The position numbers and the translations under genes are program-made. A stretch of 16,525 nucleotides of DNA. Source: a virus (lineage: Duplodnaviria > Heunggongvirae > Uroviricota > Caudoviricetes). This document shows positions 1,150 to 16,525 of the stretch, one piece after another. Location of the stretch: the IMG/VR virus record IMGVR_UViG_2706794662_000018, one strand, 5' to 3'. The first letter of the stretch is position 1, and each line of letters starts with the position of its first letter. The notes under the pieces were generated by a model. It ran no database searches. It saw only the letters and a list, made by a program, of their open reading frames with translations, and was not told where the DNA came from.

Positions 1150-1457
1150 TCAATAATCCCCACGGCATATACCCAAAAATGTTTACCCTTCACAAAGAGC
1201 TTTTTACTCTCAATTAGAAATACAGGCATCTTTTCACCCTGTAATTCCCATTCAAGTACTTCACCAACTTTGAAATCTTTCTTCTTCTCATAAATAACGT
1301 TCATATAGCTATCAATCTGATAATTACTTTTCTTAACGACCTTTTGAAATTTCTTATCAAGAAAACATTTGTTAATTGGCATACTATTACCATCTGGTGT
1401 CATGCCATTTAGCTTAATCTTGCTTATTAAATCACCATAATGTTGCTCAAAATTCAT
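1146..1457 (-). CDS. hypothetical protein
   Basis: 103-aa ORF with ATG start. Start and stop overlap both neighbours by 4 nt, suggesting translational coupling within an operon. No recognisable motif. Confidence 0.4.
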   Translation of the reverse strand: MNFEQHYGDLISKIKLNGMTPDGNSMPINKCFLDKKFQKVVKKSNYQIDSYMNVIYEKKKDFKVGEVLEWELQGEKMPVFLIESKKLFVKGKHFWVYAVGIIE

Positions 1458-2032
1458 TGTCTACTTATCCTGAATGTTCCCTGAATACCGCTCATAATTA
1501 CCCTTACACCATCATTGGCTTCCTTATAGAAGTCATAGATAAGGCGACGTTGTTTCTTCTCACGTAAGCCAATTACACGTTTGGTTTTCTTCTTGGTATC
1601 TTTCTTTGCGGTATCAATTAATCGTTCTTTACCATTCTTACCCTTCACTACCTTATATCGTTCACTTAAAAGATTCTTTTTCAGTCCTGAAATGTTGCCC
1701 TGCTTAGTTAATCTTGTAGATGAAGTAGGTATAAACTTATCAATTGCCTTTGGCTGTACCAGTACTTGATAAAGGTACTTAGCCTGAATATCTTTAACCA
1801 TGATGGTCGATGTAACTGAATTTCTCCCAACCTTTCTATAGAAGAAAAGGATGGAACGTTGAGTAAAGCCCACTGCCCCACGGTCAACGCTATTATTCAA
1901 ATCACCCTGCATTCTTTGGGATAGTAGCTTGGAACGTTTAATTATTTCATTCTGGAATTGATTATTTAATCTAACTCCCTGCGTTTGTATATAGTTCCTT
2001 ATACTACCAATCCCATTTATTCCACTTGCCAT
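1454..2032 (-). CDS. hypothetical basic (Lys/Arg-rich) protein
   Basis: 192-aa ORF, ATG at 2032..2030 with GAGGT Shine-Dalgarno 6 nt upstream. Strongly basic C-terminal half (KGKNGKERLIDTAKKDTKKKTKRVIGLREKKQRR). No family recognised. Confidence 0.45.
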   Translation of the reverse strand: MASGINGIGSIRNYIQTQGVRLNNQFQNEIIKRSKLLSQRMQGDLNNSVDRGAVGFTQRSILFFYRKVGRNSVTSTIMVKDIQAKYLYQVLVQPKAIDKFIPTSSTRLTKQGNISGLKKNLLSERYKVVKGKNGKERLIDTAKKDTKKKTKRVIGLREKKQRRLIYDFYKEANDGVRVIMSGIQGTFRISRQ

Positions 2033-2041
2033 ATATTTACC

Positions 2042-2476
2042 TCAATTCAAGTACTCCAATAGTTCCTGTACTATTCCGAGTAGTCTTTTTTTATCCTTTG
2101 CATTTGGTGATCTAATCTTACTCATCATTGCCAGATTCAAACATTCCGGTTTAAGCATCTGATGAAGGATCAGTATTGCCTCTACAATCATTACCTCTCG
2201 CATAGTTGCGAAGCACCATAGAATCGTTTTTGAGTACTGTTCACCATTTTCAATTTTGTTTTTAACGACATTGGAACTACTGAGGTACTCACGCCAGCCA
2301 TTTTCCTTTGAAGTGGGCTTTAGCTTTCTCGCATCCTTAACCCGCTGATAGATTTGCTTAGCACCGACATAATTAGAACCATCCTCAAACTGAAAGATAT
2401 AAACGAAACCAGCATATTCACCGGATAACATTTCCTCCTCGCTCCAATCATCCGAGTATTTCCATTCACTCATCAT
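2042..2476 (-). CDS. GIY-YIG-like nuclease domain protein (tentative)
   Basis: 144-aa ORF starting ATGATG, AGGA Shine-Dalgarno upstream. Segment GFVYIFQFEDGSNYVGAKQ ... R fits the GIY-(10-11 aa)-YIG pattern followed by a conserved Arg, as in I-TevI and T4 Seg proteins. Motif-level only. Confidence 0.45.
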   Translation of the reverse strand: MMSEWKYSDDWSEEEMLSGEYAGFVYIFQFEDGSNYVGAKQIYQRVKDARKLKPTSKENGWREYLSSSNVVKNKIENGEQYSKTILWCFATMREVMIVEAILILHQMLKPECLNLAMMSKIRSPNAKDKKRLLGIVQELLEYLN

Positions 2477-2483
2477 AAATATT

Positions 2484-2502
2484 CCTATAAATTCATTATA
2501 GG
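2484..2502. promoter_or_regulatory. inverted repeat cctataa-N5-ttatagg in the 36-bp divergent intergenic region (candidate operator or promoter element)
   Basis: Perfect 7-bp arms with a 5-bp spacer, lying between the divergent start codons at 2476 (minus) and 2513 (plus). It overlaps a TATAAA-like sequence. Confidence 0.3.
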
Positions 2503-2512
2503 TATTTAGTAA

Positions 2513-2962
2513 ATGAGCGATTTAAAAACACGATTAAAAGAATATGAAGGTACTAAAGAGTATCAGGCAAATTTGAAGTACTTCAGAAATGGGAAATTCT
2601 ATCCATATGCTGATAGTTTAGGATGTAGTACTATTGGATATGGTCACTTAATTCAGGCGGGAGAAGATTTTAGTACTGGCATTACTGAAAGCGAAGCAGA
2701 CAAGTTACTATCTCGCGATTTAGCCAAAACAATTATGCAGGTACAGACATTAGGGTTAAATCTTCCCGATGACTGGAATGATTTTATTATTATCATGACC
2801 TTCCAGTTAGGTATTGGCGGGGTGAAGAAATTCCGTAAGATGTTAGCAGCCCTGAAAGCACATGATTACCTTGAAGCAATTAAACAGGCTAAGTGTTCTC
2901 TATGGTACAGGCAGACACCAAACCGTGTGAATTCCATGATTGCAGTACTTAAAAACAAATAA
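2513..2962 (+). CDS. endolysin, T4-type lysozyme (glycoside hydrolase family 24)
   Basis: 149-aa ORF, ATG start, TAA stop. Matches remembered T4/P22 lysozyme motifs: catalytic-region YEG ... YADSLG ... STIGYGH, then ITESEADKLLSRDL and CSLWYRQTPNRVNSMIAVL (T4: ITKDEAEKLFNQDV, SRWYNQTPNRAKRVITTF). No N-terminal hydrophobic SAR segment, so a holin is presumably required. Confidence 0.9.
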   Translation: MSDLKTRLKEYEGTKEYQANLKYFRNGKFYPYADSLGCSTIGYGHLIQAGEDFSTGITESEADKLLSRDLAKTIMQVQTLGLNLPDDWNDFIIIMTFQLGIGGVKKFRKMLAALKAHDYLEAIKQAKCSLWYRQTPNRVNSMIAVLKNK

Positions 2963-2968
2963 AGAAAA

Positions 2969-3002
2969 GGCATAGTACGAATGACATACTATGCCTTTTT
3001 TT
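2969..3002. terminator. bidirectional rho-independent terminator
   Basis: Perfect 9-bp stem ggcatagta (2969..2977) / tactatgcc (2987..2995) with a 9-nt loop. An A-run lies upstream and a T7 run at 2996..3002. It sits between the convergent endolysin (+) and the 3001..4029 gene (-). Confidence 0.65.
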
Positions 3003-4029
3003 ATGGTCGTTGTTTCTGCTGAAGAATTGCAATAATCCTTTCAATCTTAACATCAAGTTCATGGATTTGTGTTTCCAGTTTACTTAGTGTATCTCTCATC
3101 TTATCCTGATCATCCTCAATACGGGAAATACTACTTTCCAGTACAGCAATGGTAGTTTCAAGAGTAGCAACGCGAGTTAATAGATCATTCGTATCCTTTG
3201 TATTATCTCTAAAGATAGTATAAAGGAATACGCATCCAGAAATAACAANNNNNNNNNNNNNNNNNNNNNNNNNNNNNNNNNNNNNNNNNNNNNNNNNNNN
3301 NNNNNNNNNNNNNNNNNNNNNNNNNNNNNNNNNNNNNNNNNNNNNNNNNNNNNNNNNNNNNNNNNNNNNNNNNNNNNNNNNNNNNNNNNNNNNNNNNNNN
3401 NNNNNNNNNNNNNNNNNNNNNNNNNNNNNNNNNNNNNNNNNNNNNNNNNNNNNNNNNNNNNNNNNNNNNNNNNNNNNNNNNNNNNNNNNNNNNNNNNNNN
3501 NNNNNNNNNNNNNNNNNNNNNNNNNNNNNNNTGATATGTTCCCCGGACATTGTGACCAGCAGAACCAGGGATCAGCTACTGGAGACGTTACCGTAATGGC
3601 AGTACTGAGATCGGTAGCCGCAGGTGCTGTCAAAAATCCCCTGATACGTGGCATTGTTGCCGCTGATGCAGCAGACCAGATTAAAGTACCTTCTTCACTG
3701 AACACATCAAGAAAACCAGATGTGGGGGTAGCCGTGTGACTACTTGTCATGAACCTGCCCATGCCAGGCTGGAACATATAGGCACCAGGGAAACACCATG
3801 CCCCGTCTTTCTGTATCTGGAACCAGTACTGTGTTGTGTTCCTGTTAGCTACTACTGATGGCATAACGAAACCGAGCGATCCACCATTACCGAAGGCACA
3901 GGTAAAGCCTGTGTAGTATCCCGTATCAGTTAGATTTCCCATGGCCTTTACTGCACCCGTCATTATCGACTTGTTAGTACTATCTATAGTCAGTGCACCC
4001 GCTGAATTATATACCTCGAAACCTGCCAT
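3001..4029 (-). CDS. hypothetical tail-associated protein, paralogous at its N-terminus to the upstream 98-aa protein; continuity across the N run unverifiable
   Basis: ATG at 4029..4027, one nt after the upstream TAA. The N-terminal 166 aa are aromatic/Gly-rich. After the 283-nt N run the frame continues into a short hydrophobic segment (VISGCVFLYTIF) plus heptad-like coiled coil ending at 3001. The gap could hide a stop and a new start. Confidence 0.4.
   Translation of the reverse strand: MAGFEVYNSAGALTIDSTNKSIMTGAVKAMGNLTDTGYYTGFTCAFGNGGSLGFVMPSVVANRNTTQYWFQIQKDGAWCFPGAYMFQPGMGRFMTSSHTATPTSGFLDVFSEEGTLIWSAASAATMPRIRGFLTAPAATDLSTAITVTSPVADPWFCWSQCPGNISXXXXXXXXXXXXXXXXXXXXXXXXXXXXXXXXXXXXXXXXXXXXXXXXXXXXXXXXXXXXXXXXXXXXXXXXXXXXXXXXXXXXXXXXXXXXXXXVISGCVFLYTIFRDNTKDTNDLLTRVATLETTIAVLESSISRIEDDQDKMRDTLSKLETQIHELDVKIERIIAILQQKQRP
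3249..3531. other. run of N (masked or unsequenced), 283 nt
   Basis: Literal n characters in the sequence. Confidence 1.
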
Positions 4030-4030
4030 C

Positions 4031-4327
4031 TTACGCCGTCCACTTATATACGTTAAAAGTGTAGTTACCAGCTAACGGTGCATATGTTGGCAAATAAACC
4101 GCAGTAAATGACCCATTATTACAAAAGGCTGACCACTCATTAAAGGTATCACTGGCGGGGGCATAGTGTACAAACCAGCCTGTAGTTTTCATATTTGGTA
4201 CTGATACAGTATAGGTCTGTGCAGAAGTAGCCTTGACAGTATAAGTACCCATAAAACGTATGTTATAATCAGTCAGATCTACTACTAATACACCCGCTGC
4301 ATTCCAACATTGTAATCCCTGTGCCAT
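4031..4327 (-). CDS. hypothetical small tail-associated protein (candidate receptor-binding or fibre accessory protein)
   Basis: 98-aa ORF, ATG at 4327..4325 with AGGAG Shine-Dalgarno about 9 nt upstream. N-terminus MAQGLQCWNAAGVLVVDLTD parallels MAGFEVYNSAGALTIDSTN of the next gene. Aromatic-rich. Confidence 0.45.
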   Translation of the reverse strand: MAQGLQCWNAAGVLVVDLTDYNIRFMGTYTVKATSAQTYTVSVPNMKTTGWFVHYAPASDTFNEWSAFCNNGSFTAVYLPTYAPLAGNYTFNVYKWTA

Positions 4328-4484
4328 AGCTCTTACTCCTGTAAATCCTTTTCTTCATTCCAATTGTTTCTTTTCCGCTAATACTGAATGGGTTAGTACT
4401 GGTACTATTGAAAGTACGTTCATTAGATTTCATTTATGTATCCTTTTGAAATGAGGTTACAGTTAATAATCCCTGAATTATTTA

Positions 4485-8210
<3,726 letters not shown>

Positions 8211-8211
<1 letters not shown>

Positions 8212-9398
8212 TACTTGTATTTCCAGTTCTGATTTTGATTAACTTGACCTAACAGACTAAAGTACTCATCATTTCTATAGTAAGATTGATATACTGAGTT
8301 GGCGGCAATTAATGCAGGTTGTCTGTCTAATTTCTTATAGACAGAATTCACATATATAGTCATTTCGTTTTGCTTCTGATTTGGATCAGTTACTGCCTGT
8401 ACATAGTCAATAAACCCCGTAAACATGAGCATTGAATCAATTACAGTACTATCATATGGATTGAGAATTACTAACTTGATATTCATCTGTGCATCTTTCA
8501 AGAAACCACCAAGGGCAAGAGCACGAACCGAGGCGTTTACATTGCTAATTTTAAAATTGATAGCATCATTAGACATGCCCTTTTGTTCAGAATATGAAGG
8601 TAATGAACCACTGATAATGTCGGGGAAACTTATGTACTTATAACCATCCAGATCTATATCAATTAGTGAATCCGTCCAGTGAAAACCATTAGTACCTTTT
8701 GGTAGTACATCAAAACAAGTAACATTAACGCCTAAGCTCATAATTTCNNNNNNNNNNNNNNNNNNNNNNNNNNNNNNNNNNNNNNNNNNNNNNNNNNNNN
8801 NNNNNNNNNNNNNNNNNNNNNNNNNNNNNNNNNNNNNNNNNNNNNNNNNNNNNNNNNNNNNNNNNNNNNNNNNNNNNNNNNNNNNNNNNNNNNNNNNNNN
8901 NNNNNNNNNNNNNNNNNNNNNNNNNNNNNNNNNNNNNNNNNNNNNNNNNNNNNNNNNNNNNNNNNNNNNNNNNNNNNNNNNNNNNNNNNNNNNNNNNNNN
9001 NNNNAAGTACTGGTACGTTCTACGATTCGATATAGCTTATTGTGATTGGAAAACTGTACCCACTCACCCACAGCTAATGTGTTAGTACTGATAGGTACAA
9101 CCATATTACCCGGTTTAGTGAGAGCAGTAGCGGTTACTGCACCAGTCTGTTTACCGTAATATGTACCTGCAAGCCCCAATGACATAGTGAAAGGTTTGCC
9201 CTGTGCATATTGAGCTAAAAAGCTATTCACTTCATTTAGTGATGCAGGATTAAAATTAAGGGTGAACTGAATTTGATAGTATTGAATTCCAGTACTTCTC
9301 ATGATACGTTGACCTGTCCATGTTTGATTAGAATAGATCGGTTCAGTACTTTTAATTTGAAAGTTCGTTACTTTTATTTGATTTGAAAAGGATGCCAT
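8211..9398 (-). CDS. minor tail protein(s), gpM-like N-terminal part and gpL-like C-terminal part; may be two genes separated inside the N run
   Basis: ATG at 9398..9396. The 131 aa before the gap loosely resemble lambda gpM; the 178 aa after it loosely resemble gpL. Position directly downstream of the tape measure gene is as in lambda. The 257-nt N run could hide a stop and restart. Confidence 0.45.
8748..9004. other. run of N (masked or unsequenced), 257 nt
   Basis: Literal n characters. Confidence 1.
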
Positions 9399-9498
9399 TT
9401 TGTTACCTCGAATATCTTCTTTCTTTATTTATTTAAAAACCTCGATTCGTATTTTTTTTAACAGGCTTGATTGGCAGGCTGCATCCGTCATCGTTGCT

Positions 9499-9972
9499 AT
9501 GTTGTTATTTGCAGGCCAAATAGGCTATAACGCATATGATAAATGGAAAGAAAGTTCAGATGATGTTTTTAAGATGCGTGTAATCTTATTGAGCGAAATC
9601 AACAATAACCTTTTAGCTCTTGCTACTGGTGGCGATGAGTCTCAGGTGTTAGGCACATATGAAATATGTATTCCTCTTCCAACTGAAGATACAGAAGCTA
9701 TTAAAAGAGTAGCAACTGCCGTTTCTTATTTGCATGATGATGTATATTATTCCCAATTAGAAAAATTAGCATCACTCCCAAAAAAAGAAGTAGATGCCAT
9801 CGTAAAGAGTTATTATTCATTATCGAGATTACGTACTCTTTCAACACAGCTTGCATACAATATTAAATACTCACCACCTAAAGTTAAATTATTGCGGGAA
9901 GAGTATTACAATCTCTATACCCTTTCATCTTCTCTTTCACAATATTTGTCTTATCACACGGAAAATCCCTAA
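9499..9972 (+). CDS. hypothetical protein encoded opposite to the tail operon (moron-like), start uncertain
   Basis: Plus-strand frame open from 9400 to TAA at 9970..9972. First ATG is at 9499; the only in-frame upstream start is TTG at 9400. The TTG start would add a hydrophobic helix (WQAASVIVAMLLFAGQIGY). No strong Shine-Dalgarno at either. It converges on the tape measure gene with a 10-bp gap and is visibly more AT-rich than its neighbours. Confidence 0.45.
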   Translation: MLLFAGQIGYNAYDKWKESSDDVFKMRVILLSEINNNLLALATGGDESQVLGTYEICIPLPTEDTEAIKRVATAVSYLHDDVYYSQLEKLASLPKKEVDAIVKSYYSLSRLRTLSTQLAYNIKYSPPKVKLLREEYYNLYTLSSSLSQYLSYHTENP

Positions 9973-9982
9973 CTGGGCTTTC

Positions 9983-12196
9983 TTATGTATTACGTTTTTG
10001 ACTACTTCTCACAGCTTGAGAAACACTATTGGCGTGTTTCTTAAGCATCTCATTAAATTTCTTGTCATCATCAGCTACATCACCCTGGATGATCAATGGT
10101 GCGTTAACGGTAATATCACCTGAAGTACTTCCACCTTCTTGTTTATCCAAGAATGCTGTTAATTTCTTATTCGCTTCAGGCTGCACCACTCTCTCGCCCT
10201 GCTTAAGTACAAATGATTTGTTGTCATAACTTGCTGGTAGTTCATCTACCCCGCCATGGAACTGACCAGCAGCAGCACCCTTTGCAGTACTAATAATCGA
10301 CATACCAAGTGAAAGTACTTGTGCATAGTTTGCCAATGAAGCTGGCCAAGGGGTAGCGAGTGCTTGGGCCAATGCTGACTGAATTGAAAGTACTGTCTGT
10401 GCAATGCTTATGCTCTTACTTAGGGTAAATGCAGCTTGTGCAGCCCCACTACTTTCCCCAAACGCATCAACCATGCCCTGTGATAGTGACTGTGCAGTAC
10501 TTGAGAAGATACTTAACTGATCCTGTGCATTCTGGTTACTGATTTGGATGGCCTGTGCATTGTACTTTGCCGTGATCTCAGCTTTACGTTTCTCATAGTC
10601 CTCATGGCCTTTCAGCAACAACTCATTCTGCTGAAGTTCAGCATTCATAGCATCAGCGTTATCTTTCAACTTCTGATCGGTATCGTTATAGGCTAATGGA
10701 TTACCACCATTGATACGCTGATTCTGTTGCTGTGCCAGATACCCCTTCTGATTGTCATTGAGTAGACCGGAACCAATAAGAGCATTGGTATCTTTCAGAC
10801 CCTGATTAGGATCTTGATAACCAACCATTGAATTCAGTAAATCAGTACGTTGTTTAGCACCATATGCAGTAGCGTTCTTTAGCATTTCATCAGGATTGAT
10901 ACCGAGTACTTGAGCACTATCGGTGATGGTTTTAAGAAGTGCCTTTTGTTGTCTGTCGAACTGCTGTAGACGTACCTGAAAACCATCTTCCCCAACTTGA
11001 GCAAGAGCAGCTTCCAGATTACGTTGAGCCTGTAGGCGTTTTGCATCTGCCGCCTTTTGTGCCGCTTCTGCCTGTTTACGTTGTTGTTCTAACTTCTTCG
11101 CTGCATCTTCAGCTTCTTTTGCCTGATCAACCCATCCGCCAGTAGGAGCGGTAGCAACCGCAACATCGGACTTTAGGTTGTTTGCCAGTTCTTCTAAACG
11201 TGCCTTAGCCTGAGCGAACTCATTACCCTTGTTGCCCTTATCATCCATGATGCCAGTATTGAGTGCTGCACCCTGGTAGTTTAATGCCCCTGCTGTACGT
11301 AATTTTTCCCAGATATCCAACATATCCTGTAGAGAACCCTTGGAAGTTTTAATACGTTCATTCAGATCTTCAAACAAACCTGCCTCGTGAGGTTTTTGAT
11401 TTGCAGCATCATAGACACTGTTCATGGCATTAACTAAAGGTGATAGGCCATCAGCAATAGTACCTTTAATGCTGGTAGTAAGTTTCCCAAGGTTTTTATC
11501 GAATTCAGCATATTTTTCAGCAGCATCATTAGTTACTTCAGCATTTTGTGACTGGATATAGGCTGTAGCTTGAGCCTCATTATTGAACTGCTGAAGAGTA
11601 CTAATCATGTGGCTTGAGTCACTGGCTAACGTTTCCATTACGTTAACTATTTCACTCTGTGATTTACCTGCATCACGCATGGCGTAAAAGGTGTGGATCA
11701 CAGCCTGCATACCACCATCAGCCTGTTTTAAGTACTTGTTATAGTCCTGTAGGTTGAGTCCATATTCTTTAAGATCATCGGATACACCACCGCCAGCACG
11801 AAAAGCATCACCGAGCTTATCCAAGGTATCCTTGTTGAAATCACCAAACTTATCAATCTCAAGACCGAGGCCACTAAACGCCGCTGATAGCTGTTGTAAC
11901 TGAACCACGGACAATCCGGTACTCTTACTGATCTGGTTCATTTCACGCACATATTCACGTGATGATTCTACTAATGCTGCCAGGCCACCAATACCAATAG
12001 CCGCAGCACCCGCGATCCCGGTCATAGCAGTACCGAACCCGCCAGCCATACCAGTTATTCGGCCTGTGAACTCTTCAACAATGCCACCAGCAGTACTACC
12101 AAATTCCTCTAATGATTCAGTACCAGACCTTAAAGCACGCTGTAAACCGGAAGAATCACCCGTAATATCTACACGTATTCTATTATTATTTGCCAT
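9983..12196 (-). CDS. tail tape measure protein
   Basis: 737-aa ORF, AGGAA Shine-Dalgarno about 9 nt upstream of the ATG. Gly-rich hydrophobic segment near the N-terminus (GMAGGFGTAMTGIAGAAAIGIGGLAAL), long A/Q/K/E-rich helical stretches, second hydrophobic region near the C-terminus. Sits immediately downstream of the G/G-T chaperone pair. Confidence 0.85.
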   Translation of the reverse strand: MANNNRIRVDITGDSSGLQRALRSGTESLEEFGSTAGGIVEEFTGRITGMAGGFGTAMTGIAGAAAIGIGGLAALVESSREYVREMNQISKSTGLSVVQLQQLSAAFSGLGLEIDKFGDFNKDTLDKLGDAFRAGGGVSDDLKEYGLNLQDYNKYLKQADGGMQAVIHTFYAMRDAGKSQSEIVNVMETLASDSSHMISTLQQFNNEAQATAYIQSQNAEVTNDAAEKYAEFDKNLGKLTTSIKGTIADGLSPLVNAMNSVYDAANQKPHEAGLFEDLNERIKTSKGSLQDMLDIWEKLRTAGALNYQGAALNTGIMDDKGNKGNEFAQAKARLEELANNLKSDVAVATAPTGGWVDQAKEAEDAAKKLEQQRKQAEAAQKAADAKRLQAQRNLEAALAQVGEDGFQVRLQQFDRQQKALLKTITDSAQVLGINPDEMLKNATAYGAKQRTDLLNSMVGYQDPNQGLKDTNALIGSGLLNDNQKGYLAQQQNQRINGGNPLAYNDTDQKLKDNADAMNAELQQNELLLKGHEDYEKRKAEITAKYNAQAIQISNQNAQDQLSIFSSTAQSLSQGMVDAFGESSGAAQAAFTLSKSISIAQTVLSIQSALAQALATPWPASLANYAQVLSLGMSIISTAKGAAAGQFHGGVDELPASYDNKSFVLKQGERVVQPEANKKLTAFLDKQEGGSTSGDITVNAPLIIQGDVADDDKKFNEMLKKHANSVSQAVRSSQKRNT

Positions 12197-12590
12197 TCTT
12201 TTTCTTTCCTAATACCTGAGATTTAATTAACTCCCCTATAGATTTAATATCATTGGATTGAGCCTCTTTAGTTTTTAATTTTCTTTCTTCAGCTTTCTCT
12301 GAAGTACTCTTAGTACTATCACTAAGCACATCAAGAAAATCAAAATCCTGTACCTTGATACTTTTCCTTGCTTCTGGTGTTAGGTTGCCATTACTGATAG
12401 TGGTGTAGTAACACTGGTACGCATGTTTCATCATTTCAATCTGCGTACCGGATGGTTCTATAAAAGTATCGTAGATCATAAGCATATTGAGTACATCAGG
12501 ATCTAAACTAAAGTATTCTTCAGGTGATAAGCCTCTTTTGTTAACCATCTTACAAAAGTACTTTAATTCGATATCACCTCTTACTTTTTT
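12186..12590 (-). CDS. tail assembly chaperone G-T frameshift extension (gpT-like part, made as a G-T fusion)
   Basis: The -1 frame relative to G is open from the slippery site through the ATG at 12548 to TAA at 12188..12186, with no stop in between. The stop overlaps the tape measure start by 11 nt. Confidence 0.55.
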   Translation of the reverse strand, partial: KKVRGDIELKYFCKMVNKRGLSPEEYFSLDPDVLNMLMIYDTFIEPSGTQIEMMKHAYQCYYTTISNGNLTPEARKSIKVQDFDFLDVLSDSTKSTSEKAEERKLKTKEAQSNDIKSIGELIKSQVLGKKKNGK

Positions 12591-12886
12591 TCTACTTCAT
12601 CTACAGGTTTCGCAGTATTGATTAAAGCAATAATTGCTGAGTAAATTTCATTCTGGATTACAAAATCAATAGAGTTAACATTAATTCGTCCATCAATATC
12701 TTCTTCTGCGAAGATAGGATCACCATTTTCATCTTTTACACATAGGATTAGAGTTTTAGCCACATCAGTGCATTTCTGGAAATCCTGACCATTTGGACGA
12801 TGAATAAAGATGATTTCACCCATTACTTCATGTGGTTTTAATTCTGGTTGTAGTTTTTTCTTCAATTCGTTTAAATTCATTTTCAT
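12581..12886 (-). CDS. tail assembly chaperone, gpG-like
   Basis: The ORF track start at 12892 is a TTG. GGAG lies at 12890..12887 and ATGs at 12886 and 12880, so the true start is probably one of those. Stop TAA at 12583..12581. Small acidic protein between the tail tube and tape measure genes. Ends in the slippery heptamer. Confidence 0.6.
   Translation of the reverse strand: MKMNLNELKKKLQPELKPHEVMGEIIFIHRPNGQDFQKCTDVAKTLILCVKDENGDPIFAEEDIDGRINVNSIDFVIQNEIYSAIIALINTAKPVDEVEKK
12584..12590 (-). other. programmed -1 ribosomal frameshift site, slippery heptamer A_AAA_AAG
   Basis: mRNA reads GTA GAA AAA AAG TAA. The heptamer A AAA AAG is in the zero frame of G immediately before its stop, identical to the E. 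coli dnaX slippery sequence. It lies at the position of the conserved G/G-T frameshift of tailed phages. Confidence 0.55.
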
Positions 12887-12892
12887 CTCCAA

Positions 12893-12921
12893 TAAAAAAG
12901 GGAAAGTTGAGCACCTTCCCT
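12893..12921 (-). terminator. intrinsic terminator or attenuator hairpin between the tail tube and chaperone genes
   Basis: On the minus-strand transcript a 6-bp stem (12921..12916 pairing with 12904..12899) with an 11-nt loop is followed directly by UUUUUAUU (12898..12893), which runs into the GGAG of the next gene. Confidence 0.4.
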
Positions 12922-12931
12922 TTATTTATTA

Positions 12932-13405
12932 TTATTCGCCCGATTCTGGTTTTGGAGTAATCAGACCTGAATCAATTGCTTCACCATCAACTGCAAGGGT
13001 GAAAGTCTTAGTTACTACTTCATCTTTATCACCACCGATAGTGGTACTTGAAACAAAGCAGGTATAAATTACAAAGAAACCTTCTTTTTTAGTTGCATCG
13101 GTAAAATAGCTTAGTTTTACCTGACAACGTTTCTGATCGTCTGCAAGTTGTTCTAAATTCTGATGTACTGCATTATCTGGTAAGTAGTTAACTGCAAGAG
13201 AAATGTCCGGGATTGACTTAGTACCCAATAGCTTACGATCATAAGCATTATTGAATGTTTTTACGCTAATTACAGTACTTTCAAAGCCTGAAGTACTGAA
13301 GGTGTTTACCTCTGGTACTTCTACAAAGTCAGTAGCAACTGTTTTACCAGCACTTGAACCTACTTCTACAGTAAGGTTAGCACCGGAAAAAATATCCATA
13401 GCCAT
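12932..13405 (-). CDS. major tail tube protein (lambda gpV-like fold, tentative)
   Basis: 157-aa ORF, ATG at 13405..13403 with AAGGA Shine-Dalgarno. Occupies the canonical position immediately upstream of the G/G-T chaperones and tape measure gene. Pattern-level resemblance to lambda gpV from memory. Clear paralogue of the N-terminal domain of the 883-aa protein. Confidence 0.6.
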   Translation of the reverse strand: MAMDIFSGANLTVEVGSSAGKTVATDFVEVPEVNTFSTSGFESTVISVKTFNNAYDRKLLGTKSIPDISLAVNYLPDNAVHQNLEQLADDQKRCQVKLSYFTDATKKEGFFVIYTCFVSSTTIGGDKDEVVTKTFTLAVDGEAIDSGLITPKPESGE

Positions 13406-13420
13406 AGTTTTATATCCTTA

Positions 13421-13455
13421 TAAGAAAATTTTATTGGAGTGAATCCGTTCACCCC
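13421..13455 (-). terminator. weak hairpin between the fibre gene and the tail tube gene (possible attenuator)
   Basis: On the minus transcript GGGGUGAA-CGGA-UUCACUCC (13455..13436) forms an 8-bp stem with one G-U pair, followed by AAUAAAAUUUUCUUA. The U tract is interrupted, so termination is doubtful. Confidence 0.25.
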
Positions 13456-13463
13456 GTTTATAT

Positions 13464-16115
13464 TTATTTATTATTTAATAGCTGTTGTACTAAATCTTTT
13501 AGCTGATTAATTTCTTCTTGTTGGGCTTGAATAGCTCCCATCAAGTCCATCACTATTGGATTTAAATCAACACGTGGATGATCACGAGTGACAATCTCCC
13601 CTTCTATTTCAACTGTTTCTTCATCATGCTTAATGTACTGCGGAGCAGTCAACTCAGCATCTTCGGCGATAACACCAAACCTAACCCTTTCTTGTTCATC
13701 ATCCTTGTAGATAAACGTTACTAAATCTTGTGACATTATCCGATCTAATGCTTCAACTGGATTTGCTGGAGTTATGTCTCTTTTAAACTCACGACCTGAT
13801 GTACCTTGAGCTTGCATTACTAACCATCCAAACCATGTTGTACCGTTCCCGCCTCGTACTCTTAAAGTACCACCACCGTCTATCTGAAGCTGAGAGCGAT
13901 TTGCCCCTGGGTGTCTTTGCATGTGCAATAAAGGGGAATATTTTTCACTATAGTTAATACCTGAGTCACCTGGCCCTGCATACATACCGTTAAAGGTGAT
14001 GGTATTGGCATCTGTCGGTCCCGAAACAGCGGTATTAGTCATCCATCCTGATTGAACATCAGTTAGGATCGTTCCAGTCGGCCCTTTTAGCCCCCATAGT
14101 TTATCCTCTGCACCATTTTCAGAAATAAAAAGGGTGAGATCAGCCTGTCCAGTCTGTCCCATCGTTTTACCAACCCGAAAACCACCAGATATTTCAGTTG
14201 ATGTACCAATGTTGCATATCGAACGAATACGCCCTCCAGTTACATAACTACCAATTGCCGTAGAGGAAGGGGAAGAAGCAATAACATCCCATTGAGGACT
14301 AACTGAAGTACGACTACTCAGCAAGTTTTCAACCCAGCGTTTGGTAGTCGCGTCAGAATCAGAGACAGGATCTCCTGCTAAAGAAGTTGCACCCGTAGGA
14401 CGAATCGCAGGCCATAACTCAGCCTGAGTCTTAACACCAGTACCGCCCTGCGGAATTGCTAATGCTTTCCAGCCAGTGAAAGCACCCGCAATATATGTAG
14501 CTGAACCCCATTGCCCTCCATCATAAACCACTAATGCAGCGGAAGAATCAGCGGATTTAATAGTTGTTAAATTACTACCTTGATTAAAGCGATCCACCTG
14601 AAAGTTTAGGCGAGCACTCAAAGCATCTGTAGCCCCTGTCCCCCCCTGACCTATACCTAAAGCAATCCATCCAGTACCAGTACTTGCACCCCATGCCCCG
14701 TTATCCTGAATTCGGATACGGTTAGTCAGGTCATTACTCATCAGATCGGTGTACGTAGCACCCTGAGTCAAACGGTTCACCTGTAGGTTAGTACGTGCTG
14801 TAGAGAGACTGGATAGATCAGAAAGGTTACTCGCTTTCTTCATGGAAGCGGAATCAAGGGAAGTAATACTGTCAGCTAAAGCCGTTACCTCTGCATCTAC
14901 TTCATCCATTGAGTAAACAGCAAGGTTAATACGTGCTTCTTCCACGTCCCCCAGATCACTTAGATTACCTGCTATCGTAAGCTGGGCATCATCTGTAACC
15001 TTCCCTAAGCCAACATCAGTACTGGTAAGTACTACATCCTCACTGAGTACATGACCGTTGACCATACGTGTATCAGGTACTGAACCTGTATCTTCACTAC
15101 TCAGTACTACATTTTCACTAAGTACATGACCGTTCACTGTACGCGTGTCAGGTACTGAACCTGTATCTTCACTACTCAGTACTATATCTTCACTGAGTAC
15201 ATGACCATTAACTGTCCGTGTATCTGGTACAGAGCCGGTATCAGTACTGGTAAGTACTACATCCTCACTTAGAGGCTTACCATTCACAGTACGTGTATCA
15301 GGTACTGAACCTGTATCTTCACTGTTCAGTACTAAATTGGCCGTGAGTGCATGGCCGTTGATGGTACGTGTAAGGGGTACGTATCGCCCGTCCATCTGTG
15401 TAGCGGTATATATGCGTGTCCAGGCGGTTGTAGCGTTCTTTGCATAGATACTTAGAGTACCCGTCTTTGTCATCGCAAGAGAACTTACAGTAGTGCCATC
15501 TACAAGCCCTACTCCCATCAGATCCGCCCCGGCAGGATTGCCTGCTTGAGATGATGGTACTTTGATGAAGCTGTTACCCGTAGGTACTGATGGTGAGTAC
15601 TGAGGTACATCCGTAGTGTTCGAACCTAAACCGTAGTCCCCCTGATAGATTGGCGATAGTGCGTTAATGGTCATTGCACGTGCGATCACATCATGTGGGG
15701 CAAAACTGTATGCCTTGGTTACTACTGAACCTTTATCACCGTCCAACTTATAAGAGGTGATATAACCATTCACCATCGCATAAGTAATGGTATTTTCATC
15801 CTTATTCATCTGGTACTGAATGATGATCTGGAAAAGCTGCTGAGACTTAGCGGCATTATCCAAGAATTGATGTGTAGGATCATCAGGTAGGTAGTTAACT
15901 ACAATATCAAATGGTGCTACTGATTTATCAGATAGTAGTACTGTCCTGTAATCACTATCATACGTTTCAAAATTATTTGCTTCTGAATTTATTGTTAAGG
16001 TTGGAAAAGTATTAATCTGTTTAATTACTACATTGCCTGCTCCCTGTGGTGTTCTGTTACCAATATCAGCATTATACTGTACTGATAATTCTCTTCCTGA
16101 GAAAATATCACTCAT
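13464..16115 (-). CDS. tail fibre protein with N-terminal tail-tube-like domain, five 25-aa tandem repeats and C-terminal intramolecular chaperone (peptidase S74-like) domain
   Basis: 883-aa ORF. Residues 1-145 align with the 157-aa tube protein (MSDIFSG/MAMDIFSG, NTF, VNYLPDD/VNYLPDN, GDKGSVVTK/GDKDEVVTK). Middle has fibre motifs (NLSDL ... ARTNL). The C-terminal 111 aa (SGREFKRDITPANPVEALDRI ... LVTFIYKDD ... RFGVIAEDAELTAP) match the autoproteolytic chaperone domain of endosialidase and T5 L-shaped fibres, with Ser and Lys 5 residues apart. Confidence 0.8.
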   Translation of the reverse strand: MSDIFSGRELSVQYNADIGNRTPQGAGNVVIKQINTFPTLTINSEANNFETYDSDYRTVLLSDKSVAPFDIVVNYLPDDPTHQFLDNAAKSQQLFQIIIQYQMNKDENTITYAMVNGYITSYKLDGDKGSVVTKAYSFAPHDVIARAMTINALSPIYQGDYGLGSNTTDVPQYSPSVPTGNSFIKVPSSQAGNPAGADLMGVGLVDGTTVSSLAMTKTGTLSIYAKNATTAWTRIYTATQMDGRYVPLTRTINGHALTANLVLNSEDTGSVPDTRTVNGKPLSEDVVLTSTDTGSVPDTRTVNGHVLSEDIVLSSEDTGSVPDTRTVNGHVLSENVVLSSEDTGSVPDTRMVNGHVLSEDVVLTSTDVGLGKVTDDAQLTIAGNLSDLGDVEEARINLAVYSMDEVDAEVTALADSITSLDSASMKKASNLSDLSSLSTARTNLQVNRLTQGATYTDLMSNDLTNRIRIQDNGAWGASTGTGWIALGIGQGGTGATDALSARLNFQVDRFNQGSNLTTIKSADSSAALVVYDGGQWGSATYIAGAFTGWKALAIPQGGTGVKTQAELWPAIRPTGATSLAGDPVSDSDATTKRWVENLLSSRTSVSPQWDVIASSPSSTAIGSYVTGGRIRSICNIGTSTEISGGFRVGKTMGQTGQADLTLFISENGAEDKLWGLKGPTGTILTDVQSGWMTNTAVSGPTDANTITFNGMYAGPGDSGINYSEKYSPLLHMQRHPGANRSQLQIDGGGTLRVRGGNGTTWFGWLVMQAQGTSGREFKRDITPANPVEALDRIMSQDLVTFIYKDDEQERVRFGVIAEDAELTAPQYIKHDEETVEIEGEIVTRDHPRVDLNPIVMDLMGAIQAQQEEINQLKDLVQQLLNNK
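14997..15371 (-). repeat. five tandem 75-bp (25-aa) repeats inside the fibre gene
   Basis: Protein repeat TRTVNGHVLSEDVVLSSEDTGSVPD occurs 5 times with a few substitutions each. The DNA units are near-identical (for example gtatcaggtactgaacctgtatcttcactactcagtactacat recurs at about 15070, 15146 and 15296). Confidence 0.85.
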
Positions 16116-16132
16116 CCTTTATATCCTTTTAG

Positions 16133-16525
16133 TTATCTTGTCTTTTCCGTAACTTGAATATTTATCGTAAAGGATAGGGAAACCGAGCCAGTTATAGGAT
16201 CTGTGACAATATCGGATTGTTCATAAGAACACGAAAGCATTATTAAACCTGCATCACTGAATGCTGAAGTTTTCTCTTTATCAAAAGTACTAATAATCTG
16301 ATCATAAGTGATGGATGGGGCTGTATTACCTGATTCTGGTTTAGGGGAAATCAGATACTGAATTGCAAAGTTACCTGCCCGGCGTTCATTGCTGAAACTT
16401 AAACTCGTTAATGAGTAATCAAAAGCAATTTGTTCAAATACATCAACATCACGTGATACTGTCAGATTCTTAGTAGCATTGATAAGCTGCTTCATCGTAT
16501 TCCGTACTTTTTGTACTAACATCAT
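16133..16525 (-). CDS. tail terminator protein candidate (lambda gpU-like by size, position and weak pattern)
   Basis: 130-aa ORF with ATGATG at the window edge (16525..16520), so it is probably complete. Upstream of the fibre and tube genes, and the same size as lambda gpU (131 aa). Pattern-level resemblance only (RDVDVFEQIAFDYSL vs gpU RPAVFDEADFPAVAVYL, from memory). Confidence 0.4.
   Translation of the reverse strand: MMLVQKVRNTMKQLINATKNLTVSRDVDVFEQIAFDYSLTSLSFSNERRAGNFAIQYLISPKPESGNTAPSITYDQIISTFDKEKTSAFSDAGLIMLSCSYEQSDIVTDPITGSVSLSFTINIQVTEKTR

Follow-up and report, generated by a model that had tools for sequence, protein, structure and literature searches.

A reverse-oriented accessory gene between the tape measure and distal tail genes of a Shigella sonnei prophage: a moron-type cargo gene and its possible role at the cell envelope

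Why does one gene run against the direction of an otherwise uniform array of phage tail genes, and what is it there for? The question is raised by a virus-derived stretch of 16,525 nt (IMG/VR record IMGVR_UViG_2706794662_000018, Caudoviricetes), called the window below, which covers the tail and lysis end of the genome of a temperate siphophage of enterobacteria. In its list of open reading frames (ORFs), the tail genes from 16525 down to 3001 are all on the minus strand. Between two of them lies a plus-strand ORF of 190 aa read from a TTG start (9400–9972, stop codon 9970–9972), referred to here as the ORF. Its right flank is the minus-strand gene of the tail tape measure protein (TMP, 737 aa, 9983–12196; phrog_13674, E=5e-86), and its left flank is the 5' part of the minus-strand gene of the distal tail protein (Dit, 9005–9398; phrog_1302, E=6e-10). 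The only further plus-strand gene of the window, a lysozyme gene (2513–2962), is outside the tail block. A sequence-only reading had described the ORF as an opposite-strand gene in a minus-strand array whose stop is 10 bp from that of the TMP gene, and the ORF list agrees on both points. The ORF stop ends at 9972 and the TMP stop begins at 9983, so that the convergent genes are separated by a 10 bp spacer (9973–9982) without a terminator hairpin. At the other end, the TTG (9400–9402) is one base from the Dit start (CAT, 9396–9398). An identical protein was found on hundreds of Shigella sonnei contigs and a few of E. coli; the phage that carries the gene is a prophage widespread in Shigella sonnei. 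We are highly confident that the ORF is a real accessory gene in a cargo hotspot, and only tentative about what its product does.

The ORF could in principle be a chance reading frame in an AT-rich spacer, the antisense shadow of a minus-strand gene or a regulatory RNA. Its non-canonical TTG start would fit this, as would the failure to find a promoter or terminator in a consensus scan of 9005–10400 and the disagreement of annotated lengths (157 aa, 179 aa partial and 190 aa). The comparison of six diverged loci speaks otherwise. The five other frames contained 6–29 stops each (6–23 in the minus-strand frames, in all loci), and since the plus frame alone is open throughout, there is no minus-strand gene of which the ORF could be a shadow. 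The dN/dS ratio of the ORF was 0.09 between the window and a Citrobacter copy, 0.13 between the window and an Enterobacter copy and 0.12 between the latter two, with dS values of 0.7–1.0. An Rfam search of the region gave no credible RNA family (best E=0.77). Homologues with a common architecture extend down to 20–30% identity. In two decayed prophages, moreover, the reading frame is unbroken although the genes on either side of it carry frameshifts. The shadow-ORF explanation, which the sequence-only reading had named as one that would overturn it, was checked in these relatives and did not hold. As far as sequence analysis allows, a chance or shadow ORF is refuted, and we give the non-gene explanation a practically negligible probability. 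On the same comparative grounds, the ORF was shown to be a real, protein-coding gene under purifying selection.

An in-frame ATG at 9499 would give an alternative form of 157 aa. The 33 codons 5' of this ATG had 9 synonymous and 3 non-synonymous changes relative to the Citrobacter copy, with 6 and 0, respectively, in codons 19–33. In relatives of 56–58% identity, the WQAASVI motif encoded 5' of the ATG was preserved through synonymous changes. Over eleven loci, the codon at the start site was TTG in most (seven), GTG in one (L026) and ATG in another (L024); in L023, an ATG follows the start-site codon directly. Alternation of TTG, GTG and ATG at a single fixed site points to an initiation codon there and hence to a protein of 190 aa. 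In the window, the start is preceded by a Shine-Dalgarno-like AAGGA (9388–9392) with a 7-nt spacer. The 190-aa TTG form is therefore favoured over the 157-aa form as the probable product. The TTG start with an N-terminal membrane helix, suggested by the sequence-only reading, was supported by start-codon switching, by selection upstream of the ATG and by the hydropathy of the whole family.

Presence or absence of the gene at this junction was then surveyed in 30 related viral contigs, which were collected with the TMP as bait (TMP identity 36–100%) and in which the interval from TMP to Dit was measured. The junction was empty in 13 of the 30 loci. There the gap was 59–132 bp and held a GC hairpin past the TMP stop, a TATAAATA-like motif and the ribosome-binding site (RBS) of the Dit gene. 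Eight loci carried a member of the 190-aa ORF family (clades P0004 and P0006 included; gap ~588 bp), and the remaining nine had other inserts. A multi-transmembrane protein of 208–212 aa (Pfam DUF6216) was encoded in four of these (L019, L022, L039 and L043; gap ~670 bp) and a GHSLG alpha/beta-hydrolase-like protein of 260–280 aa (Pfam DUF726) in another four (L020, L032, L037 and L040; ~890–970 bp), while one held the insertion sequence IS1 (L021; 839 bp). In total, the 190-aa gene was absent or replaced in 22 of 30 related loci. The exchange occurs among close relatives: the TMP of one DUF6216 carrier (L019) is 96% identical to that of the window. Cargo genes of all three kinds run opposite to the tail genes and have a low GC content (30–36%), and the DUF6216 and DUF726 genes start only ~36–70 nt from the Dit start. 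The pattern of presence, absence and replacement indicates an inserted accessory gene. A TMP–Dit hotspot with three alternative cargo genes of unknown function is previously undescribed and is the new part of this analysis.

Empty junctions have the TATAAATA-like motif ~27 nt before the Dit ATG together with an AGAGG-type RBS, and the same elements occur in other occupied loci. In the window, the Dit leader (9399–9436, minus strand) has the RBS GAGGT at ~9405–9409 and an ATAAATA motif at 9432–9426, and is overlapped antisense by ORF codons 1–12; the ATAAATA motif underlies codons 9–11. Because leader motif and RBS are retained, codons 1–12 of the ORF are written antisense across the old Dit leader. 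As an observation on the junction itself, the GC-rich hairpin of the empty loci directly follows the TMP stop (L027, L028, L030, L033, L041 and L042) and is terminator-like in some of them, with a T run after it. The junction may be a transcription-unit boundary, with a terminator followed by a late-type promoter.

Two further copies of the ORF, 87% (Citrobacter cronae, L002) and 84% (Enterobacter sp., L008) identical to that of the window, are not in intact prophages. The Citrobacter remnant lies between a HAD-hydrolase gene and modC, and the equivalent of window positions 8575–10348 survives; its Dit gene is frameshifted, and TMP residues 615–737 are left, again with a frameshift. In Enterobacter, the remnant lies between mipA and prkA, beside insertion sequence and recombinase fragments. 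Here the equivalent of 9005–10213 survives, with a Dit gene that is truncated and frameshifted at least twice and with TMP residues 660–737. Thus, only the last 78–123 residues of the TMP remain, and the 190-aa ORF is intact in both. Insertion sites and deletion end points differ between the two remnants. Independent remnants that keep the same ORF, with a dN/dS of 0.12 between them, are the footprint expected of a prophage gene useful to the host. An independent island was considered for the Citrobacter copy and rejected, as the Dit and TMP fragments mark a prophage remnant. The Enterobacter remnant also holds, at 7563–8273 and 8344–9306 of that locus, a 236-aa gene with ~76% DNA identity to a 241-aa gene at the prophage end of the Dryocola relative L007 and a 320-aa gene of unknown function. 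The host may therefore have kept several cargo genes of this phage group.

How far does the gene travel? Homologues of 84–100% identity were found in Shigella, Citrobacter, Enterobacter and Buttiauxella, and homologues of 56–63% in Klebsiella and Dryocola. The family is small: a search of 1.84 billion clustered proteins with the close-clade profile gave only 11 representatives (E<=0.001). The profile retrieved P0011–P0015 at E=3.5e-5 to 8e-4. The ORF protein matched phrog_3829 (hmmscan E=1e-5, residues 21–143), and hhalign aligned the ORF clade with the 197-aa 'lysogenic conversion protein' of P2-like prophages over 163 columns (98.9% probability, E=1.2e-17). All 29 P2-like viral loci have the gene of this protein between the tail genes G and FI, a slot known as 'moron position 2' (PMC3573123). 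Other relatives, of 218–225 aa, lie directly after the integrase in integrative elements with type IV pilus/shufflon, TraD and MobA genes. In one case, in E. coli (L010–L012, 7090–8657), a 218-aa member lies beside the integrase and is separated by 38 bp from the 290-aa TIR-domain gene that precedes it; L013 and L014 have a member at the same position but no TIR gene. The family was thus shown to occupy accessory positions of three kinds of mobile element and of a Pantoea megaplasmid. The P2-like homologue is a true distant relative of the ORF product (phrog_3829; P0017 cluster, 569 members). Both have a basic N-tail, the (I/L)NW(E/Q)A.SVI.AM.LF helix, a (Y/S)EI..N helix and, at the C-terminus, a helical domain of comparable length, and both are encoded in accessory slots inside the tail clusters of temperate phages. 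The P2-like protein differs in that its identity to the ORF product is 20–30%, its phage is a myovirus rather than a siphovirus, its gene shares the strand of the tail genes and its slot is another one. P2's own occupant of the G–FI slot, Fun(Z), is an unrelated protein of 528 aa. As a name, 'lysogenic conversion protein' comes from annotation only: a literature search on it found no experimental work, and the P2-like homologue had no Pfam, NCBIfam or PADLOC match.

Base composition had been put forward as a sign of foreign origin. The claim that the ORF is markedly AT-rich was overstated: its GC content is 34.4%, against 39.7% in the window, 43.9% in the TMP gene and 36.0% in the Dit gene, and several small tail genes are lower, within a range of 32–34%. 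The hexamer AGTACT is the commonest of the window (58 copies, from 938 and 1255 to 16286, with ~5 expected), and its GTAC core occurs 174 times, or ~11 per kb. Its copies use all three codon phases (26/16/10), and the Dryocola relative is likewise enriched, with 52 AGTACT. Phages do not usually over-represent a palindrome so strongly, and the excess points to selection acting on the DNA itself, for example as part of a modification or binding-site signature. It is true that the ORF has no AGTACT, as the sequence-only reading had pointed out, but this is weak evidence by itself: the AGTACT-free gap extends from 9345 to 10124 with a Poisson probability of ~0.12 for zero copies, and gaps of 1387 and 975 bp occur elsewhere in the window (the latter spans a run of N). 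AGTACT was also absent from the ORF in all five loci compared (the window and four diverged relatives). The observation becomes reasonable as a depletion of GTAC, with one copy in the ORF against 6.4 expected (P=0.013). Comparable depletion was found only in a short chaperone-like gene, in an HNH-like gene at 1–795 (1 vs 8.8 expected) and in the AbiGi gene of the Dryocola relative (2 vs 8.4); the AGTACT/GTAC signature is missing from cargo-like genes. The composition of the ORF therefore departs from that of its surroundings modestly in GC and more clearly in GTAC/AGTACT depletion, which is common to defence-like cargo.

Can the gene be expressed on its own? With the ORF start only 1 nt from that of Dit, the insert has no space for a promoter, and one would have to fall within the coding sequence of Dit. 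The top weight-matrix pair there is a weak candidate sigma-70 promoter on the plus strand (9282–9310), with TTGAAT (9282–9287), a spacer of 17 nt and TACGTT (9305–9310). It is found at the same position in the window and in the Citrobacter, Enterobacter and Dryocola loci; the −10 hexamer of the Enterobacter locus is TAAGTT. Both hexamers were intact in 9 of 11 occupied junctions (any cargo) vs none of nine empty ones, an association (Fisher 3e-4) that is confounded by relatedness and Dit coding. A hand count over six family-occupied loci did not demonstrate extra conservation of synonymous sites inside the hexamers relative to their neighbours. As the DUF6216 and DUF726 genes also start near the Dit start, a resident antisense promoter could be shared by whichever cargo is present; this is a lead only. 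The hairpin search 3' of the ORF gave only a weak hairpin (−7 kcal/mol, 9992–10035), and without an intrinsic terminator after the ORF, the transcript would run antisense into the TMP gene.

The moron concept applied here is that of Juhala and co-workers (2000) and Cumby and co-workers (2012). A moron is recognized by extra DNA relative to related phages, by a differing base composition, by a promoter and terminator of its own and by expression from the repressed prophage (PMC3594210). Extra DNA is evident at the TMP–Dit junction, which is empty in close relatives (13 loci vs 8 with the ORF family). No convincing promoter or terminator of its own was found for the ORF, so the strict textbook definition applies only in part. 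Its intact state in the two decayed prophages is at most an indirect sign of expression from the repressed prophage. With this restriction, the moron reading proposed from the bare sequence stood up through presence and absence, retention in remnants and homologues in the P2 slot and in integrative elements. These comparisons support the view that the ORF is a horizontally mobile moron or lysogenic-conversion gene in a variable TMP–Dit cargo slot. They also show an accessory gene that passes horizontally between mobile elements, that the phage can do without and that hosts keep.

The protein itself was examined by hydropathy, charge and a structure model. Codons 1–26 (9400–9477, plus strand) encode a basic N-tail, with four basic and one acidic residue in the N-flank. 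Codons 27–45 (9478–9534) encode a predicted single transmembrane (TM) helix, AASVIVAMLLFAGQIGYNA, with a Kyte-Doolittle (KD) 19-residue mean of 1.52. Codons 48–190 (9541–9969) encode an all-alpha four-helix-bundle domain of ~145 aa, which is probably periplasmic. In the AlphaFold (AF2) model, a helix of residues 25–76 passes from the membrane segment into the bundle. Hydropathy and charge of 15 members gave the same pattern for the family: a short basic N-tail leads into a single hydrophobic helix, which is followed by a helical C-domain of ~140 aa. The helix consensus is (I/L)(N/D)W(Q/E)A.SVI.AM.LF, with a KD mean of 1.5 in the window protein that rises to as much as 2.4 in distant members; two residues, E66 and N70, do not vary across the family. 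A membrane-anchored protein with its N-terminus in and its C-terminus out is thus the probable topology.

From this architecture, the following role can be proposed. The ORF, which runs against the late tail operon and whose TTG adjoins the Dit start, would be expressed from the repressed prophage, most likely via a promoter inside the Dit 5' end. Its product would be anchored in the inner membrane by a single TM helix, with a short basic tail in the cytoplasm and a bundle probably facing the periplasm. An anchored periplasmic bundle would be placed where the incoming tail tip and TMP must form the DNA-injection channel, and incoming phages might be kept from building or using that channel. 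Small inner-membrane prophage proteins, some of them encoded in tail clusters, are known to block DNA injection (PMC3594210, PMC10883804). Exclusion of phage DNA entry is our best guess at the function, though a doubtful one. As a whole, a moron-type cargo gene acting as a superinfection-exclusion factor at the envelope is the best explanation, which we hold tentatively and at slightly less than even confidence.

Several points weigh against this explanation. Retention in remnants shows that the host benefits, not which benefit it draws. The hydrophobic segment is only moderately hydrophobic in the window clade (KD 1.52), the topology has the positive-inside rule as its single basis, and a four-helix bundle is a generic fold that carries no functional information. 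The consensus scan gave neither a plus-strand promoter nor a terminator, and the candidate promoter is weak (3/6 in the −10 hexamer) and lies in sequence that is also constrained by Dit coding. One family member is on a Pantoea megaplasmid, beside a Sel1-repeat lipoprotein and with no phage link. Finally, the family had no match in PADLOC 2.0, NCBIfam, Pfam, PDB sequences or BFVD, and a search of PDB sequences with the family profile gave nothing meaningful. We regard as rather unlikely, but worth stating, a bolder version, in which the TMP–Dit boundary would be a cassette-like exchange site where unrelated reverse-oriented envelope-protein genes (ORF family, DUF6216 and DUF726) are exchanged right at the Dit start codon, with a resident antisense promoter in the conserved 5' end of Dit. 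The 190-aa protein would then found a new exclusion family, built from an inner-membrane anchor and a periplasmic four-helix bundle and common to siphophages, P2-like myophages and integrative elements, that blocks foreign DNA from phages and possibly from conjugation.

A lysogenic-conversion gene need not act on phages at all. Its membrane-anchored periplasmic product could alter the physiology of the envelope in another way, through conjugative entry exclusion, protection from colicins or other imported toxins, stress tolerance or host association, which would suit the homologues among type IV pilus/shufflon, TraD and MobA genes of integrative elements and the megaplasmid homologue next to a Sel1-repeat lipoprotein. 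Morons are functionally varied (e.g. Lom, Bor and Cor, which protects against colicin M; PMC3594210), a virulence-fitness gene, NeaT, is found in the P2 slot (PMC3573123), and survival in decayed prophages fits any host benefit. Yet a protein anchored in the inner membrane is not exposed at the surface, which limits direct interaction with a eukaryotic host, most characterised single-gene membrane cargo of prophages acts on phage entry (PMC3594210, PMC10883804), and no domain indicates a transport, signalling or enzymatic role. On balance, we consider a non-phage target unlikely. Within phage defence, the protein could instead act after injection, as an abortive-infection effector that depolarises or permeabilises the cell on sensing infection, alone or with a TIR partner. 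The distant homologue directly downstream of a TIR-domain gene and beside an integrase (L010–L012) invites this thought, other defence-like cargo is present in the window (the HNH-like gene at 1–795) and in the Dryocola relative (AbiGi), and single-TM effectors are frequent in defence systems (PMC9122126). Against it, L013 and L014 carry the homologue without the TIR gene, the gene is always a lone one in siphophage and P2-like contexts, a periplasmic C-terminal domain could not sense cytoplasmic phage components, and there was no PADLOC match. Such an effector seems quite unlikely to us.

A role in the lytic cycle, as an i-spanin-like protein, a regulator of lysis timing or a helper of tail assembly or injection, was also weighed. 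Type II topology with a helical periplasmic domain recalls i-spanins, and the window's lysis-region genes, holin and lysozyme among them, include no recognised spanin pair. Nevertheless, the junction is empty in thirteen relatives and holds unrelated genes in eight more, the gene is antisense to the late operon, and it is kept in remnants that lack lysis and tail genes. No embedded or adjacent lipoprotein partner was seen, the other frames being full of stops. The P2-like homologues lie between G and FI, far from the lysis cassette, and others are in integrative elements and on a plasmid. In short, neither an o-spanin partner, nor a place in the lysis cassette, nor conservation among relatives, which would mark an i-spanin, was found for the ORF. 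Spanin and tail-component readings were rejected on the presence/absence pattern and the non-phage homologues, and a lytic-cycle role is very improbable.

Returning to superinfection exclusion, the closest known parallel is HK97 gp15, the first described moron, an inner-membrane superinfection-exclusion protein that blocks DNA entry and whose escape maps to the tail tube/tape measure region (PMC3594210, PMC10883804). The sequence-only reading had named gp15 as an example. Both are accessory genes in a tail operon adjoining the TMP gene, and gp15 is a small, prophage-expressed membrane protein. The two are unrelated in sequence, gp15 being a YebO family protein of 62 aa rather than 190 aa. Moreover, the gp15 gene is on the other side of TMP, between the tail assembly chaperone and TMP genes, on the strand of the tail genes and with an annotated terminator. 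P22 SieA, lactococcal Sie2009 and Ltp are thought, like gp15, to interfere at the DNA-injection channel (PMC3594210, PMC10883804). They resemble the proposed ORF product as prophage-encoded envelope proteins of ~160–190 aa from single genes and serve as the model for its proposed function; SieA differs by its three predicted TM helices, against one in the ORF protein (PMC10883804). No homology in sequence or fold was found between the ORF protein and the characterised exclusion proteins HK97 gp15, P22 SieA and Sie2009. SieA, Sie2009 and Ltp are encoded near immunity or early regions, whereas the ORF is in the tail cluster. Ltp is a lipoprotein.

The slot, in turn, resembles the anti-phage hotspots of P2-like phages and P4-like satellites, fixed sites between conserved phage genes at which unrelated accessory or defence genes interchange (Rousset et al. 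2022, PMC9122126). That paper treats another P2 locus (PMC9122126). At the TMP–Dit junction, too, unrelated accessory genes replace one another among close relatives, but in another phage group and at another position, and with single small genes that mostly encode membrane proteins. None of the TMP–Dit cargos (ORF family, DUF6216 and DUF726) is a recognised defence system. Since morons in tail operons have been known since HK97 gp15 and cargo hotspots from P2 and P4, the category to which the ORF belongs is already known.

The remaining genes of the window complete the picture of its phage. In minus-strand order, the window begins with a fibre-like gene (13464–16115, 883 aa) that ends in a Peptidase_S74 chaperone domain, followed by the major tail protein gene (12932–13405) and two chaperone-like genes (12581–12892 and 12186–12548). 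Beyond the TMP and Dit genes come a DUF6950 gene (7807–8211) and the gene of a 1109-aa tail tip protein (4485–7814), all of these on the minus strand; the holin gene of the lysis region (856–1149), further lysis genes and small genes complete the order. Runs of N at 3249–3531 (283 bases), 7015–7304 (290) and 8748–9004 (257) mask parts of three genes and give artefactual lengths to the ORFs that bridge them (3001–4029, 4485–7814 and 8211–9398). The last of these, a Dit ORF of 395 aa, spans the run at 8748–9004; its equivalent in the Dryocola relative is two genes (185 + 207 aa), and the 395-aa ORF probably is two genes as well. Inside the fibre-like gene, a tandem repeat of 75 bp (4.1 copies, 80% identity, 15028–15334) codes for 25-aa units (…SEDTGSVPDTRTVNGHVLSEDVVL…), with AGTACT sites in every unit. 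A SegE-type GIY-YIG homing-endonuclease-like gene (2042–2476, minus strand; Pfam E=2e-16) has the lysozyme gene on one side and the small holin-adjacent genes on the other and is kept in the Dryocola relative. The minus-strand gene at 1–795 encodes 264 aa, of which ~100 N-terminal residues match PADLOC HNH effector models (SAVED-HNH and PDC-M68A; best E=4e-23), with no Pfam match. The AbiGi gene of the Dryocola relative is at the equivalent position, which makes the prophage end look like a second cargo or defence slot.

The junction had no blastn match among cultured phages, 9005–12600 had no megablast match among complete E. coli genomes, and the TMP, compared with cultured phages by tblastn, matched only in part, always below 60% identity and never over as much as 80% of its length. 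With no near-identical DNA in either set, the phage group is known only as prophages and uncultivated viral genomes (UViGs).

If the ORF product turns out to be a routine exclusion protein, annotation would still be tidied, by the 190-aa TTG form and by the link to the P2-like 'lysogenic conversion protein'. The TMP–Dit hotspot offers a compact candidate set for new envelope-level anti-phage functions. A small uncharacterised family that was recruited to three kinds of element and is kept after prophage decay has the pattern expected of a host-beneficial gene. Accessory genes of prophages decide which other phages infect the lysogen, and this bears on phage therapy and on the ecology of Shigella, E. 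coli and related pathogens.

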